Of a DNA stretch of 44,895 bases, positions 14,925 to 19,800 are shown piece after piece. The stretch lies in the sequence record NC_047899.1; one strand, given 5' to 3'. This stretch comes from Escherichia phage VEc3. How positions within the stretch are numbered: the first letter of the stretch is position 1; every line of letters starts with the position of its first letter. Position numbers and translations under genes: made by a program. The notes under the pieces were generated by a model. The model saw only the letters and a program-made list of their open reading frames with translations, did no database searches and was not told where the DNA came from.

Positions 14925-14947
14925 ATTTACTGGACACTATAGAAGAG
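14925..14947 (+). promoter_or_regulatory. Phage RNAP promoter (ATTTACTGGACACTATAGAAGAG)
   Basis: Full consensus; +1 G at 14942. Confidence 0.7.
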
Positions 14948-14996: not shown

Positions 14997-15371
14997 ATGT
15001 TCAAGATTGAAACTATCGTAAACCGTGTTGTTAAAGGTGCTGCTCTGGTATCCGTTGAGTCTTTCATTATCGTCGATGAAGCTGATCAACTGGTAGCTGG
15101 TACTAAGGCTTACGATACCCGTGAAGAAGCTCAGGCTAAGATTGACAGCATGGGTAACTTCGCTGCTGGTCTGGAGTTCGCTCGCGCTTGCTTCCCTGAG
15201 CAGGCTGACAAAGCTCAGATTGGTAAGGCTAATATCGTAGCTGAATATCTGGATTGGATTGCTGCTGGTAAGCCGGTGAAAGAAGTTAAGTCTGCTGAAG
15301 AAGCTGAAGCTCCAGTAGAAGAAGTAGCTGCACCGGTAGATGCTCCGGTAAGCGAAGAAGAAGAGTTTTAA
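14997..15371 (+). CDS. Small acidic-tailed protein (124 aa), own promoter and terminator
   Basis: Track ORF; Ala/Glu-rich; C-terminus ...VSEEEEF; flanked by promoter 14925 and terminator 15378. Confidence 0.6.
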   Translation: MFKIETIVNRVVKGAALVSVESFIIVDEADQLVAGTKAYDTREEAQAKIDSMGNFAAGLEFARACFPEQADKAQIGKANIVAEYLDWIAAGKPVKEVKSAEEAEAPVEEVAAPVDAPVSEEEEF

Positions 15372-15377
15372 TTGATG

Positions 15378-15410
15378 CCCTGTCTGCCTTAGTGTAGGCA
15401 GGGTCTTTTG
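15378..15410 (+). terminator. Terminator hairpin plus U-run
   Basis: CCCTGTCTGCC-TTAGTG-TAGGCAGGG then TCTTTT; same design as 24688. Confidence 0.65.
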
Positions 15411-15435: not shown

Positions 15436-15741
15436 ATGCCGACTATTAAATCTCGTTTAGTAGCAGACTATGTGTATGGTCGTGACTTAAAGTTAATGCA
15501 AGATTACTTTAAAGTAATCATCCTGCTGGATGGAGAAGTGTTTCACACTAAAACATTCACCCTTCCTGAATTGTTTGATTTAGGTTATTGGGGTTATACA
15601 TATCAGGCCATAGCAGACAAGGTGCTACTCAGTGTATTAGAGGAGTGGCCTACATGCGACCAAACTTCGACTTCGGAGCTACAGTATCGGAAGACAATAA
15701 TCTCATCTTGTGGCCAACTGAAGGTAATAGAATCGCTTTAA
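15436..15741 (+). CDS. Hypothetical protein (101 aa), 3' end overlaps the exonuclease start
   Basis: Track ORF; GGAGA RBS; 88-nt overlap with the preferred exonuclease start makes extent uncertain. Confidence 0.4.
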   Translation: MPTIKSRLVADYVYGRDLKLMQDYFKVIILLDGEVFHTKTFTLPELFDLGYWGYTYQAIADKVLLSVLEEWPTCDQTSTSELQYRKTIISSCGQLKVIESL

Positions 15742-16682
15742 TAGATGCTGATATGTTACCTTACATCGTAGGATGTACAATCAGTGACATGACTTATGTA
15801 CGAGCTACAACTCGTGTTAAGTCAGGACAAGTCCCATCAATCAAAGATACACCTGAGTGTAAGCAAGCGTGTGACCGTGTGAACTCCTTGCTCAACTCTT
15901 GGGTGTATGCAGCAGAGTGTGATGCAGCTAAATTATTCATGACGAAATCAGAAGCTAACTTCCGTGTTCGCCTAGCCTTCACCAAGCCTTATAAGGGTCA
16001 ACGTAAGACCGAGAAGCCTCCGTTCTTCTATGAATTGCGAGAGCATCTCTTAGAGGTTCATGGTGCAATCTTGGCAGATGGAGAAGAGGCTGATGACCTC
16101 ATGAGCATTGCACAATGGGACAGCCACCGCCGCTTCCAGCAAGATACAGGTAACGAGTTTCCTATCGGTAGTCCAGAGCATAAAGCATTCTCTGATACTT
16201 GCATCGTTTCCTTGGATAAGGATTTGATGATTGTTCCCGGTTGGCACCTTCAGCCGGGACAAGAGAAGAAATGGGTAGAGCCTATGGGTTGGCTTGAGTT
16301 ACGCCGTAAGGCTAATGGTCAGGTTAAAGACCTTAAAGGTGCTGGCCTCATGTTTCATTATGCACAGATGATTATCGGTGATGATATTGATAACTATGCT
16401 GGCATACCTGGACGTGGTGCTAAATACGCCTATGATCTTCTCAAAGATTGTAAGACAGAGAAAGAGTTGTACATGGCAGTGCTTGGTGCTTACAAGGCTA
16501 AGTTCGGACATGGACAAGTTAAGATTAAGAATTACCGAGGTGGTTATCGTATCGGCAAGGCTTTTGACCTGATGCTCGAATGTGGTCGCCTAGCTCACAT
16601 GGCAAGATTCAAAGGTGATATATGGCGAGCCGATAAGAACCCAATCTTGTGGGGAGATGATGCGGAATGGTTAGCAAATTAA
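15654..16682 (+). CDS. 5'-3' exonuclease (gp6-like, FEN family)
   Basis: 342 aa from ATG 15654 (AGGAG RBS); acidic active-site blocks IALIDADML, ADGEEADDLM, LDKDLMIV, GDDIDNYAGIPG; track ORF 15588 is an N-terminal over-extension. Confidence 0.8.
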   Translation: MRPNFDFGATVSEDNNLILWPTEGNRIALIDADMLPYIVGCTISDMTYVRATTRVKSGQVPSIKDTPECKQACDRVNSLLNSWVYAAECDAAKLFMTKSEANFRVRLAFTKPYKGQRKTEKPPFFYELREHLLEVHGAILADGEEADDLMSIAQWDSHRRFQQDTGNEFPIGSPEHKAFSDTCIVSLDKDLMIVPGWHLQPGQEKKWVEPMGWLELRRKANGQVKDLKGAGLMFHYAQMIIGDDIDNYAGIPGRGAKYAYDLLKDCKTEKELYMAVLGAYKAKFGHGQVKIKNYRGGYRIGKAFDLMLECGRLAHMARFKGDIWRADKNPILWGDDAEWLAN

Positions 16683-17077
16683 AATCATCGGAGGTAGCAG
16701 CTTATAAGAGGGAATTACTAGAGAAGCAAGGATGGAAGTGCCCCCTATGTGGCGGCAGTCTCAAGGCTGTTACTCCTATAAACCGTGTACTTGACCATGA
16801 CCATGAGACAGGATTCTGCCGTGCTGTTGTATGCCGAGGTTGCAATGGTGCAGAAGGAAAGATTAAGGGTGTTATCTCTGGTTATGGTAAGGCTGGTAAC
16901 AACCGTTACTTCCAGCTTCAATGGTTAGAGCGACTATATGAATACTGGAAGTTACATAGTACGCCTCAGACAGATAAGTTATATCACAAACATCAAACGG
17001 AGGCAGAGAAGCGCGAGGCTAAGAACCGTAAGGCACGCCTTGCTTATGCAAGAAAGAAGGAGGTTAAAGTTGGGTAA
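16667..17077 (+). CDS. Endonuclease VII-like Holliday junction resolvase
   Basis: 136 aa; CPLCG...DHDH...CRGCN zinc-binding pattern as in T4 endonuclease VII. Confidence 0.75.
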   Translation: MVSKLKSSEVAAYKRELLEKQGWKCPLCGGSLKAVTPINRVLDHDHETGFCRAVVCRGCNGAEGKIKGVISGYGKAGNNRYFQLQWLERLYEYWKLHSTPQTDKLYHKHQTEAEKREAKNRKARLAYARKKEVKVG

Positions 17078-18077
17078 GCTTCGCAGCTTGTACAAAGACT
17101 CCGAGGTACTTGATGCAATCGAGCAAGCTACCGACGAGAAAGGTAATGTTAATTACAATGAGATGGCACGTGTATTATCGTGTCACCCTGTGGGTAAGAA
17201 GATTACCCGCCAGTTGGCTCGATACTGGCATGGTCAATTCAAGAAGACCAAGAAGAATGGTGATTATTACCAGACCCTTCTGCAAGAAGATAAGCGTATC
17301 AAAGAAGAGCGTAAGCTCAGGACTCCTGACCGCTACGAGGATTTGGCTATTGTACCATTGCCTGACTCACCTCATCGAAGTGTACTGGTAATCCCAGATA
17401 CTCATGCACCTTATGAGCATCCAGATACCTTAGAGTTCCTTGCAGCAGTCGCGGCACGTTACCGTCCAGATACAGTGGTTCACTTAGGGGATGAGGCAGA
17501 TAAACACGCCCTCTCCTTCCATGACTCTGACCCGAATCTGGATAGTGCTGGCATGGAGCTAGAGAAGGCTCGTGTCTTCATGCACAAGTTGCACAAGATG
17601 TTCCCTGTGATGCGCCTGTGTCATTCTAATCATGGCTCTATGCACTTCCGTAAGGCAAGCGCCAAGGGTATTCCAGTGCAATATCTTCGCACCTACCGTG
17701 AAGTCTTCTTCCCAAATGGAGGTGGCGACCAGTGGGATTGGCAGCATACACATGTTCTTGAGTTGCCGAATGGTGAACAAGTGGCATTCAAGCATCAACC
17801 TGCTGGCTCTGTCCTAGCAGATGCAGCGCATGAGCGTATGAACCTTGTGTGTGGTCACTTGCACGGTAAGATGTCTGTGGAGTACGCACGTAATACACAT
17901 GAACAGTATTGGGCTGTGCAAGGTGGCTGCTTAATTGATGAGTCATCCCGTGCATTTGCCTATGGGCGTGAGTCTAAATACAAGCCAGCATTAGGTTGTG
18001 TGGTTATTCTGGAGGGTGTACCTCATATTGTCCCGATGCAAACCAATAGCGACAACCGTTGGATTGGCAAGATTTAG
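17070..18077 (+). CDS. Calcineurin-like metallophosphoesterase
   Basis: Motifs IPDTHAPYEH, LGDEADKH, CHSNHG, GHLHG; TTG start 17070 with AAGGAGG RBS preferred over track start 16938, which overlaps the endo VII gene; in-frame ATG at 17163 is an alternative. Confidence 0.6.
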   Translation: MGKLRSLYKDSEVLDAIEQATDEKGNVNYNEMARVLSCHPVGKKITRQLARYWHGQFKKTKKNGDYYQTLLQEDKRIKEERKLRTPDRYEDLAIVPLPDSPHRSVLVIPDTHAPYEHPDTLEFLAAVAARYRPDTVVHLGDEADKHALSFHDSDPNLDSAGMELEKARVFMHKLHKMFPVMRLCHSNHGSMHFRKASAKGIPVQYLRTYREVFFPNGGGDQWDWQHTHVLELPNGEQVAFKHQPAGSVLADAAHERMNLVCGHLHGKMSVEYARNTHEQYWAVQGGCLIDESSRAFAYGRESKYKPALGCVVILEGVPHIVPMQTNSDNRWIGKI

Positions 18078-18094
18078 TTGACACTATAGAACAA
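18072..18094 (+). promoter_or_regulatory. Phage RNAP promoter (ATTTAGTTGACACTATAGAACAA)
   Basis: Closest of all copies to the classical SP6 promoter; +1 G at 18089. Confidence 0.65.
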
Positions 18095-18177
18095 AGGGCT
18101 AGGTAAGACTTTATCGGCTGGCGTATCCAAATGATATTGCACTAGCCCTTGATTGTATAGCGAATGGAGGATTCAAT

Positions 18178-18681
18178 ATGTCACACTATGAATGTAAGAA
18201 GTATCATAAGCGTTATGATTACTGTACTTGTGGTCAAGAGAAAACATCTTTTAAAGTTGGAGACAAGGTATTTCGTAATGAAAAAGATTCTATTCCTTGG
18301 AATCAATTCTGCAAAGAAGCTGGTATTGACCCTGATAGTCCTGTAACCATAGATGATATTGATGGCATTAACTTGTGCTTTCGTGAGGTGAGGGGTGCAG
18401 GTTGGGATTCCAAAAAATTCAAACTTGCATCTGATAAGTTAGACAACAATATGGTAACTCAGCCTAAGCACTACGAGTTCTTTGATGGTGTAGAGGCAAT
18501 CACTATCATTGCCCGCAGTATGACTGAAAAGCAATTCGCTGGGTACTGCATGGGTAATGCCCTTAAGTATCGCCTGCGTGCAGGTAAGAAGTTCAATACT
18601 GAAGAAGACTTGAAGAAGGCAGACTATTATAAAGAGTTATTCCAGAAGCATCGTCACGAATGTATTGATGAGGATATTTAA
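18178..18681 (+). CDS. Zinc-ribbon protein with DUF3310-like C-terminal domain
   Basis: 167 aa; N-terminal CKKYHKRYDYCTCG; C-terminal PKHY...GNALKYRLRAGKK pattern recalled as DUF3310. Confidence 0.45.
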   Translation: MSHYECKKYHKRYDYCTCGQEKTSFKVGDKVFRNEKDSIPWNQFCKEAGIDPDSPVTIDDIDGINLCFREVRGAGWDSKKFKLASDKLDNNMVTQPKHYEFFDGVEAITIIARSMTEKQFAGYCMGNALKYRLRAGKKFNTEEDLKKADYYKELFQKHRHECIDEDI

Positions 18682-18682
18682 T

Positions 18683-18856
18683 ATGGAAGGTAAACTGTAT
18701 AGAGGGTACTTCGGTAACTTATATAAAGTAAGCTCTCGCGGTTTTGTATTGACCTCTGATGATGAAGGTGCAATGTGGCACCTAAGTGCATATGGTTCTA
18801 ACTTAGCACACTTTAAAGAGGCAATAGTCAAAGGTGTGATGAAGGAGGTGAAATGA
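18683..18856 (+). CDS. Hypothetical protein (57 aa)
   Basis: ATG 18683 two nt after the upstream stop; track ORF 18665. Confidence 0.4.
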   Translation: MEGKLYRGYFGNLYKVSSRGFVLTSDDEGAMWHLSAYGSNLAHFKEAIVKGVMKEVK

Positions 18857-19800
18857 ACATCTTCCAATTCCTAGGTCTTCCAGAAGACCACCGCAATCAT
18901 CCATTCATGCTGGTGAAGCATCGCGGTGAAGTTCCTGAGAAGAAACTTACTTTTCCATGTTATGCACAGGTGAAACGAGATGGAATATTCAGTGCTGTTG
19001 TGGTGCGCAATGATGGTGCTGTTGCCGTCTTTGGTCGTACTGGTAAGAAGCTCGCAAATGTTGAAGCCTTGGAAAAGGCATTTAGTGTATTTCCTGTCGG
19101 GTTGTATCTTGGTGAGTTGCAATCTATGGCTGTTGATGTTTATCTTGAAGCTCTGTCAGGAGTGGTAAACCCTAATCGTACAGAGCCACTTGACTTTATA
19201 GGCCAGCAGATTAAAGACAACCTGTATATCGACTTCTTTGATATGTTAACCATTAAGGCATTCCATGATGGATTCACTGATGTTTCTTATCTCAAACGTT
19301 ACGATGCTTTACATCGTCGCATCGGCACTCATCTTAGCGGGTACAACGCTATCCTTCCTATTACTCCTTGCCATAATGAGCGAGAAGTTGAAGCGTTTGC
19401 GCAAGAGCAAATAGATGCAGGCCGAGAGGGTGCTGTGTTTAAACTTGACGTGGAGTATGAAAGTGGGCACAAGGGCTATCGTCAAACGAAGATCGTTCGT
19501 ATGGTGTCTTACGACCTAACCTGTATTGGGTGGGAGGAAGGAAAAGGTAAGTATAAAGGTAAAGTAGCTAACCTCATTTTCAAATGGAAAGGAGGCAAGT
19601 CTGTTAAGGCTATGCTGGGTCGTGGCTGGTCACATGAGGATGCAGCCCAAATGTATCACGATATTAAGCACGGTGGCGAACTGAACGTCATTGGGAAGAT
19701 CTTCGCTGTCAAGGCGTTGCAGGAATCTAGCAAGGGAGTCCTGAGACTTCCCAAGGTTTCTGAATTACGCCACGATAAGGAGGTTCCTGATGTTTATTGA
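18853..19800 (+). CDS. ATP-dependent DNA ligase
   Basis: 315 aa; KxDG adenylation motif in YAQVKRDGIF; overlapping ATGA start. Confidence 0.8.
   Translation: MNIFQFLGLPEDHRNHPFMLVKHRGEVPEKKLTFPCYAQVKRDGIFSAVVVRNDGAVAVFGRTGKKLANVEALEKAFSVFPVGLYLGELQSMAVDVYLEALSGVVNPNRTEPLDFIGQQIKDNLYIDFFDMLTIKAFHDGFTDVSYLKRYDALHRRIGTHLSGYNAILPITPCHNEREVEAFAQEQIDAGREGAVFKLDVEYESGHKGYRQTKIVRMVSYDLTCIGWEEGKGKYKGKVANLIFKWKGGKSVKAMLGRGWSHEDAAQMYHDIKHGGELNVIGKIFAVKALQESSKGVLRLPKVSELRHDKEVPDVY

Follow-up and report, generated by a model that had tools for sequence, protein, structure and literature searches.

Escherichia phage VEc3 carries a gene for a metallophosphoesterase (MPE) between its recombination genes, and on balance we lean towards the view that its product is a Mn2+/Mg2+-dependent DNA phosphodiesterase, that is, a nuclease, of the phage replication/recombination module. 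The window analysed is the whole stretch of 44,895 bp, a complete K1E/K1-5-type genome of a virulent phage (genus Vectrevirus, Autographiviridae, SP6-like group). The coding sequence occupies 17070-18077 on the + strand, encodes 335 residues from a TTG start to a TAG stop, and is the orthologue of SP6 gp23 and K1-5 gp22. We favour DNA as the substrate because the protein is homologous to Bxb1 gp47 and A10ZJ24 gp48, because its nearest folds are nucleases or small phosphodiesterases, because it is coupled to endonuclease VII and an exonuclease, and because its N-terminus resembles a helix-turn-helix (HTH) domain.

An earlier note on this DNA had placed here a calcineurin-like metallophosphoesterase of about 335 residues, which is borne out by the open reading frame (ORF), the motifs and a full-length match to the protein family phrog_221. 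It had offered three functions: a nuclease processing DNA ends, a protein phosphatase, or a phosphodiesterase degrading host second messengers. A DNA-directed nuclease is supported by the gp47-family homology, the folds, the synteny and the HTH-like N-terminus; the phosphatase and second-messenger proposals gained no such support. The gene itself is already known and annotated in hundreds of SP6-, K1-5- and KP34-like genomes, and its superfamily assignment is routine. What we add is its placement in the gp47 family and statistics on its synteny, which favour a DNA nuclease over the other two functions.

In the mechanism that we propose, the phage RNA polymerase would transcribe the MPE gene in the middle (DNA-metabolism) class, as a single unit that also holds the genes for a 5'-3' exonuclease and endonuclease VII, and its translation would be coupled to that of endonuclease VII. 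The product would be a two-domain enzyme, in which a small N-terminal Myb/HTH-like three-helix domain probably tethers the protein to DNA or to a replisome partner, while a C-terminal binuclear MPE domain of the Mn2+/Mg2+ type would hydrolyse DNA phosphodiester bonds. Together with endonuclease VII and the exonuclease, it may act as an exo- or endonuclease on replication and recombination intermediates, on host DNA, or on both. Its activity would support phage DNA synthesis and feed deoxynucleoside monophosphates (dNMPs) to the neighbouring nucleotide kinase.

Fold and active site

The Pfam model Metallophos (PF00149) barely recognised the protein (21.6 bits against a cut-off of 21.5), and searches of PDB sequences with the single protein and with a family profile matched nothing relevant. 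By sequence, the phrog_221-type MPEs are a divergent branch of the metallophosphoesterase superfamily. AlphaFold2, run on an alignment of 26 relatives with 48-87% identity (hereafter the close alignment), produced a model with a predicted local distance difference test score (pLDDT) of 84 and a predicted template modelling score of 0.74. The model shows the MPE sandwich fold, in agreement with the earlier assignment. In fold comparison YfcE (13.4) and MJ0936 (13.2) were nearly as close as the best match, and were followed by polymerase delta/alpha B-subunits, Vps29, Mre11/SbcD (10-11.3) and the UDP-2,3-diacylglucosamine hydrolase LpxH (11.2). Scores were at most 9.7 for PPP protein phosphatases, 9.5 for class III cyclic nucleoside monophosphate (cNMP) phosphodiesterases (the class of CpdA, Rv0805 and GpdQ) and 8.9 for CthPnkp. 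Foldseek placed LpxH and Mre11, of the same superfamily, on top (E ~1e-5 to 1e-6). On the predicted structure, the nearest folds are thus nucleases or small phosphodiesterases.

The coding sequence is laid out as follows.

17376-18074, + strand: catalytic metallophosphoesterase domain, residues 103-335
17397-17426, + strand: motif I, D110-T-H112, with the family-specific extension P114-Y-x-H117-x-D119; invariant in the close alignment
17487-17507, + strand: motif II, G140-D141-E-A-D144-K-H146; invariant in the close alignment
17508-17603, + strand: family-specific insert ALSFH151DSDPNLDSAG...E163...FP between motifs II and III; highly conserved, predicted with low confidence
17625-17633, + strand: motif III, S186-N187-H188 (metal-ligand Asn and catalytic His), followed by G189
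17793-17795, + strand: motif IV, H242; invariant in the close alignment and in the core alignment A3
17853-17864, + strand: motif V, G262-H263-L-H265; invariant in the close alignment
17070-17339, + strand: N-terminal domain of about 90 residues, with helices at 10-20, 29-37, 47-57 and 71-80 and invariant L36, L49, Y52 and W53; specific to the clade

Residue conservation indicates an intact active site on which selection acts, and the motif set, with its full-length family match, lies well outside what chance would give. D110, H112, D141, N187, H188, H242, H263 and H265 are invariant in the close alignment. The earlier note had made its assignment hinge on the metal ligands being conserved in relatives, and they are kept in 120/120 close relatives, with H263Y as the single exception, and in at least 93% of 150 distant representatives. 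These representatives are clusters at 50% identity, and the counts below take in aligned residues only:

D110: 130/140 representatives; ten variants have Cys
H112: 132/142 representatives; nine variants have Gln
D141: 142/145 representatives
N187 and H188: 147/147 representatives; also present in Bxb1 gp47, D29 gp54 and JSwag gp60
H242: 148/149 representatives
H263: 147/148 representatives
H265: 148/148 representatives

Three of the four motifs named at the outset read as given, namely DxH (D110-T-H112), GDxxD (G140-D-E-A-D144) and GHxH (G262-H-L-H265). The fourth, GNH, is actually SNH (S186-N187-H188): compared with GNH[D/E], the Asn-His pair is kept, the flanking Gly is replaced by Ser186 and the acidic residue by Gly189. 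Additional invariant residues are particular to the family, namely P114 (142/142 representatives), H117 (141/142), D119, H151 and E163 (147/147). Within the insert, S149, H151, P155, L157, G161 and E163 are invariant in the close alignment.

Part of this insert, the segment ALSFHDSDPNLDSAG (window 17508-17549, residues 147-160), is near-invariant yet the least confident part of the AlphaFold2 model. The pLDDT is 55-61 across residues 141-160 and falls below 50 at 147-149. The segment may be a loop that is induced by substrate or partner.

Motif I shows natural variation. Besides the Asp to Cys and His to Gln replacements counted above (e.g. in homologues P0165, P0174, P0185 and P0220), the whole gp47 branch has Gln at this His position (PDTQ). 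Sub-lineages with such variants may differ in metal binding or activity.

Four homologues contain intein-like inserts of ~290-300 residues, located exactly within catalytic motifs: after GDE of motif II in P0121, P0133 and P0155, and in motif I in P0159. The inserts have Cys at the start and Asn then Cys at the end, and the one in P0159 shows a match to LAGLIDADG_3 (E 6e-7). In replication and repair proteins, conserved catalytic sites are where inteins typically occur. Inteins in a phage MPE appear unusual, and seem to indicate a conserved, important active site.

The N-terminal domain looks like a Myb/homeodomain/HTH three-helix fold. HTH-type Pfam matches were also found at the N-termini of other family members: P0184 matches HTH_24 with 27.4 bits against a cut-off of 21.9, and the N-terminal extensions of P0129, P0146 and P0167 match HTH models just under cut-off. 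A profile search of 1.84 billion representative sequences gave 3036 clusters at E <=1e-3. Many of these homologues consist of the core only (~235 residues), which makes the N-terminal domain a feature of this clade. When its 90 residues were used as a database query, no more than three sequences came back, all of them fragments or split copies of this one gene, so that there was no evidence for the domain in other architectures. In Klebsiella phage IME184 the gene is annotated as two pieces, one of 106 residues with the N-terminal domain (P0271) and one of 229 residues with the catalytic core (P0046). The division stems from a frameshift or sequencing error, or else the gene is naturally split where the two domains meet.

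Kinship with Bxb1 gp47

The VEc3 protein matched phrog_221 ('metallo-phosphoesterase') over its full length (E 3.4e-105), as did Bxb1 gp47 (E 4.5e-116) and JSwag gp60 (E 1.4e-112). A tblastn search with the VEc3 protein reached gp60 of Gordonia phage JSwag (E 7e-4), whose gene neighbourhood is the same as that of Bxb1 gp47, and a BLASTP comparison with JSwag gp60 extended over ~240 residues (E 2e-11). Aligning the close alignment with gp47 by hhalign gave a probability of 88.7% (E 2.6e-6, 190 columns).

We then used a family hidden Markov model (HMM) built from 79 core-only representatives and the VEc3 core, with no actinophage sequences knowingly included. It scored JSwag gp60 at 47.8 bits, D29 gp54 at 46.2 and Bxb1 gp47 at 40.3, and other MPEs far lower (T4 gp47 9.6, lambda phosphatase 7.3, D29 gp66 3.2); nothing else matched among 473 decoy ORFs. 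Because the model separates gp47-type proteins from other MPEs, the VEc3 protein is related specifically to the gp47 family, beyond its likeness to MPEs in general. The VEc3 MPE, Bxb1 gp47, D29 gp54 and A10ZJ24 gp48 belong to one phage-specific MPE family, phrog_221.

By tblastn, the gp47 branch is present in 1485 phage records, from phages of Mycobacterium, Streptomyces, Rhodococcus, Gordonia and some of Pseudomonas. Its members share with the VEc3 MPE the motifs PDTxxP[YF], HxGDxxD, NH and GHxH, and the catalytic domain aligns end to end. The genomic setting is also shared: gp47-type genes lie in the replication module near the genes for endonuclease VII, primase and DNA polymerase, next to a DUF3310 or DUF6378 gene, and in JSwag it is a DUF3310 gene that abuts the MPE gene. 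The actinophage proteins differ in being core-only (~255 residues), without the N-terminal HTH-like domain. The gp47 branch has ~22% identity to the VEc3 MPE, has Gln for H112 and is without the H117/H151/E163 signature. The alignment of motif IV with gp47 is unreliable, as hhalign and hmmalign put a gp47 Gln opposite H242, and the gp47 'THGH' aligns with the non-conserved H226-T-H228.

The gp47 family brings with it a body of experimental work. Ghosh et al. (2006) identified gp47 as the recombination directionality factor (RDF) of Bxb1, noted homologues in phages with tyrosine integrases and proposed a role in replication. The added RDF role of Bxb1 gp47 cannot apply to a virulent phage such as VEc3. 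In M. tuberculosis, replication of phage DNA requires the cluster A orthologue A10ZJ24 gp48, which is an early-expressed protein; it is a phosphodiesterase that degrades linear, plasmid and genomic DNA in vitro and fragments the host chromosome in vivo (PMC12287305). Its D10G mutant lost phosphodiesterase activity, and D10G, D41V and H175D each abolished toxicity (PMC12287305). By hhalign to Bxb1 gp47, residues D10, D41 and H175 of gp47 correspond to D110, D141 and H263 of the VEc3 protein, a correspondence that carries over to the A10ZJ24 gp48 mutants if these follow gp47 numbering. The replication requirement, the DNase activity and the damage to the host genome have been demonstrated for the mycobacteriophage proteins only. 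A replication role for gp47, L5 gp54 and A10ZJ24 gp48 has been a standing question since 2006-2012. If the link is functional, K1-5 and SP6, which are easily manipulated phages of E. coli and Salmonella, would offer a tractable system for the action of this widespread enzyme on DNA.

T7 endonuclease I (gp3) has a role in host-DNA breakdown. The annotation of T7 gives the gp6 exonuclease a role in recombination and host-DNA degradation, and T7 is without a member of the MPE family (its best six-frame ORF reached 3.7 bits). By analogy, and as a reasonable extension, the MPE of endonuclease VII-bearing relatives could be the equivalent of T7 gp3/gp6. A wider version of this idea, which we put forward only tentatively, is that a single, very large family of nucleases specific to phages has the SP6/K1-5 MPE in one branch and Bxb1 gp47 in another. 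Working alongside endonuclease VII and the 5'-3' exonuclease, the enzyme would dismantle host or branched DNA and supply dNMPs to adjacent kinases; its destruction of the chromosome would also silence the defence genes of the host, an effect reported for A10ZJ24 gp48. In endonuclease VII-bearing Autographiviridae it would fill the gp3/gp6 role.

Expression and genomic neighbourhood

All large ORFs of the window lie on the + strand. The genes and signals around the MPE gene are the following.

14931-14944, + strand: SP6/K1-5-type phage RNA-polymerase promoter core TGGACACTATAGAA, the nearest one upstream of the MPE gene, heading the exonuclease-endonuclease VII-MPE unit
15654-16682, + strand: 5'-3' exonuclease (FEN/T7 gp6-like), two genes upstream; its match to the C-terminal SAM fold of Pfam 5_3_exonuc is below cut-off
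16667-17077, + strand: endonuclease VII (PF02945, E 1.5e-12), directly upstream
17057-17063, + strand: strong Shine-Dalgarno sequence AAGGAGG, read from the sequence, 6 nt 5' of the TTG
18078-18091, + strand: next phage promoter core TTGACACTATAGAA, the sole exact match in the window
18178-18681, + strand: DUF3310/T7 gp1.7-like 'nucleotide kinase' gene (PF11753, E 2.9e-25; phmmer to T7 gp1.7, E 2.2e-27), the next gene downstream
18853-19800, + strand: ATP-dependent DNA ligase, T7-type (PF01068 and PF14743)

The open frame that contains the MPE gene runs from 16938 to 18077 (+ strand). Its TTG at 17070 matches the start of the identical 1008-nt coding sequence annotated in phage AAPEc6 (gp23), and coincides with the N-termini of homologues, which read M-[GA]-K-[LI]-R. 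The endonuclease VII gene overlaps the MPE start by its final 8 nt, an arrangement that suggests translational coupling of the two genes. The counterpart of the gene at 15654-16682 is annotated as an exonuclease in AAPEc6, SP6 and others.

Phage promoters drive expression of the unit. Their SP6-type core, GACACTATAGAA, has 11 matches in the window, against 0.61 expected by chance. Sigma-70 promoter-like sites near the MPE gene showed no excess (8 against 9.7 expected in shuffled sequence). The upstream part of the 18078 promoter, ATTTAG, includes the MPE stop codon. Because this TAG sits in the next promoter, the MPE gene is the final cistron of the middle transcription unit that starts from the 14931 promoter.

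The overlapping promoter, ATTTAGTTGACACTATAGAACAAAGG (window 18070-18095), is the only one in the window with TTGACAC for (T/C)GGACAC in its core. A strong stem-loop of 11 bp with six G-C pairs, followed by a T-run, lies at 15377-15404 (+ strand), after the ORF at 14997-15371 and between the 14931 promoter and the exonuclease gene. Within the unit that expresses the MPE, this structure might cause partial termination or be processed in the manner of RNase III sites.

We examined the conservation of this arrangement in 89 viral-contig loci, scored with home-made HMMs for nine neighbour gene families and dereplicated at 70% and 90% identity. The dominant order was DNA polymerase ... exonuclease - endonuclease VII - MPE - (DUF3310 or P-loop kinase) - ligase, and a second order was MPE - DNA polymerase - exonuclease - endonuclease VII. 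Counts at the two levels of dereplication were as follows.

Endonuclease VII directly upstream of MPE: 15/21 (70%), 36/48 (90%)
Exonuclease <=2.5 kb upstream of MPE: 15/21 (70%), 38/48 (90%)
Nucleotide-kinase-type gene directly downstream of MPE: 6/22 (70%), 14/49 (90%)
Ligase <=3 kb downstream of MPE: 8/18 (70%), 25/45 (90%)

The constant context of the gene is the replication/recombination module, and its most constant partner is endonuclease VII. The idea of a nucleotide kinase as an obligate partner was weakened, as a kinase-type gene follows the MPE gene far less often than endonuclease VII precedes it. The annotated genomes of SP6, phiKT, Vp670, VSW-3, Aeromonas phage R1 and PhiM1 agree with this synteny. 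SP6 gp23 (94% identity over 335 residues) and K1-5 gp22 (98.8% over 335 residues) lie in a shared order of exonuclease - endonuclease VII - MPE - DUF3310 - ligase, with no substantive difference from VEc3. KP34 is the exception: its gp23 has 45% identity, and the gene is placed just after that for DNA polymerase, not after endonuclease VII. The 2.1 kb surrounding the VEc3 gene are 99% identical to Escherichia phages Sem1, EC120 and EEc4, and matched 95 phage records.

The location given in the earlier note, between endonuclease VII and the ligase, was right for endonuclease VII, which is directly upstream; the ligase does not adjoin the MPE gene, from which it is separated by the 18078 promoter, the DUF3310 gene and a 63-residue ORF. 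The last of these (window 18665-18856, + strand) has a TTG start and no Pfam match, and occupies the ~170 bp that separate the ligase from the DUF3310 gene. Since the DUF3310 gene and ligase abut in AAPEc6, it is a small indel or accessory ORF that varies among Vectrevirus genomes.

The slot after the MPE gene is itself variable. In the SP6-like contigs L036, L038, L040-L042, L044 and L047, whose MPEs are 78-88% identical to that of VEc3, a P-loop (dNMP-kinase-like) gene replaces the DUF3310 gene present in L024-L035. One type of nucleotide kinase seems to have been exchanged in situ for another, non-homologous one. In Aeromonas phage vB_AdhaP_R1 (L002, 5924-7116), the 'polynucleotide kinase' beside the MPE gene matches only the HAD phosphatase domain of PNKP (PF25109, E 3.9e-18), and the ORF that follows has a weak P-loop match. 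The R1 pair looks like a PNKP split into two genes.

Alternative functions and database labels

Several points weigh against a DNA nuclease. Exonuclease and endonuclease VII are already encoded by the phage, so the need for a further nuclease is not obvious. Because the link to gp47 is remote, with Gln in place of H112 and the signature residues lacking, the substrate and role of the VEc3 protein could differ from those of gp47. According to PMC12287305, earlier work had found no phosphoesterase activity for Bxb1 gp47; its exonuclease activity was weak, with contamination not excluded (PMC11795197). The literature that we found on Autographiviridae members of the SP6, K1-5 and KP34 type consists of genome descriptions only, with no biochemistry or genetics.

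The best-placed alternative, which we nevertheless consider unlikely, is a phosphodiesterase of small molecules. It would either hydrolyse cyclic or linear signals (cNMPs, the cyclic oligonucleotides of CBASS, Pycsar or type III CRISPR systems, Ap4A or (p)ppGpp) or adjust nucleotide pools, and it would serve in anti-defence or, with the adjacent kinase, in salvage. Generic MPE chemistry is compatible with such substrates, and the idea is possible because YfcE and MJ0936 are structurally near and nucleotide kinases are frequent neighbours: a DUF3310 or P-loop gene directly follows the MPE gene in 14/49 clusters and also in phiKT, Vp670 and JSwag. In addition, another phage MPE, D29 gp66, is reported to act on cyclic AMP (cAMP) and diesters. 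The family HMM, however, gave this cAMP-using protein only 3.2 bits. Across many genera, and in at least 640 cultured phage records, the MPE gene belongs to the conserved core of the middle DNA-metabolism cluster, unlike a variable early accessory gene. It is accompanied most constantly by endonuclease VII and not by the kinase, and the family's HTH-like N-termini suggest DNA as the target. PADLOC had no match for the VEc3 MPE or gp47, and no calcineurin-type enzyme directed against CBASS or Pycsar turned up in our literature search. YfcE and MJ0936 are cellular small phosphodiesterases of unknown physiological substrate. Their motif III is of the GNCD type, compared with SNHG in the VEc3 MPE, and the NCBIfam model for YfcE matched at E 0.34 (11 bits against a cut-off of 56).

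An end-healing enzyme is less probable still. Such a 3'-phosphatase or 2',3'-cyclic phosphodiesterase would make broken ends of DNA or RNA ready for the phage ligase, in the manner of the Clostridium thermocellum Pnkp MPE domain, and the ligase is indeed close (0.8 kb downstream in VEc3 and <=3 kb in 25/45 clusters). Its linkage is nonetheless weaker than that of endonuclease VII, and it is an ATP-dependent DNA ligase of the T7 type rather than a ligase of RNA. In Aeromonas phage R1 the MPE gene is followed by the PNKP-type HAD phosphatase and P-loop genes, but an MPE 3'-phosphatase would be redundant beside a PNKP-type HAD 3'-phosphatase. There is also a weak local match to PdeM, the ligase-associated DNA-damage-response endonuclease (TIGR04123, E 9e-5). 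Membership of that family was rejected, as the match covered residues 114-146 only and scored 21.9 bits against a cut-off of 150.

Two further proposals appear highly improbable. A Ser/Thr/Tyr protein phosphatase that reprogrammes host or phage proteins, like the lambda phosphatase, would fit the MPE fold, the metal ligands and the 'PP2A-like' wording of some GenBank records, but motif II (GDEADKH) is without the Arg of GDxVDRG, motif III is SNHG and not GNHE, and no PPP model of Pfam or NCBIfam matches. Lambda Ser/Thr phosphatase is likewise a phage-encoded MPE; the VEc3 protein, however, has no PPP motifs and is structurally less similar to it, and the family HMM gave lambda phosphatase 7.3 bits. 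A chiefly non-catalytic, protein-binding factor would be analogous to the moonlighting of gp47, which binds Bxb1 integrase as RDF, and the low-confidence prediction for the conserved insert at 146-178 is what an interaction loop might give; against this stand the near-invariant catalytic residues across thousands of homologues, the secondary standing of the RDF role even in Bxb1, and a virulent genome, with no integrase annotated in the inspected parts of related genomes (VEc3 ORFs themselves not scanned for one).

Membership of the Mre11/SbcD family was tested by profile similarity and a capping domain, and neither was found: T4 gp47 scored 9.6 bits, only the core aligns with Mre11/SbcD/T4 gp47 (~166/362 residues), and the VEc3 MPE has no evident capping domain. 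A Rad50/SbcC-like partner was not among the genes flanking the MPE gene (endonuclease VII and DUF3310) or the nine neighbour families scored in the 89 loci; other VEc3 ORFs were not scanned. The DP1 subunit of archaeal PolD, a 3'-5' proofreading exonuclease (PDB 5IHE), has 13% identity and no sequence-level match. DP1 has an OB-fold and works bound to DP2, whereas VEc3 has a family A DNA polymerase and no DP2.

Among cultured phages, tblastn found the gene in 659 records, nearly all of them podophages of 30-47 kb, including SP6, K1-5, KP34, PhiM1-like phages, phiKT, Vp670, VSW-3, Ahphunavirus and Pelagibacter podophages. GenBank already carries the gene, at 99.7% identity, as 'phosphoesterase'. 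Elsewhere in the family it is labelled 'protein phosphatase 2a-like' (AAPEc6, KX279892.2; Vibrio phage Vc1; Aeromonas phage Tola), 'hypothetical' or occasionally 'endonuclease'. Other labels are unsupported or inconsistent: 'metalloprotease' for SP6 gp23, 'SRPBCC hydrophobic ligand binding family' in a note to phiKT and 'MRE11' in some mycobacteriophages. Of the GenBank labels, 'PP2A-like protein phosphatase', 'metalloprotease' and 'MRE11' are unsupported by our analysis. In phage-therapy genomes, such as those of KP34-like Klebsiella phages and E. coli K1 phages, annotators would do best to take the gene for a probable DNA-metabolism enzyme and not for a signalling or virulence factor. A similar mislabelling affects the neighbour of gp47 (Bxb1 gp49, D29 gp55), which is annotated as 'phosphofructokinase' but matches only DUF6378.

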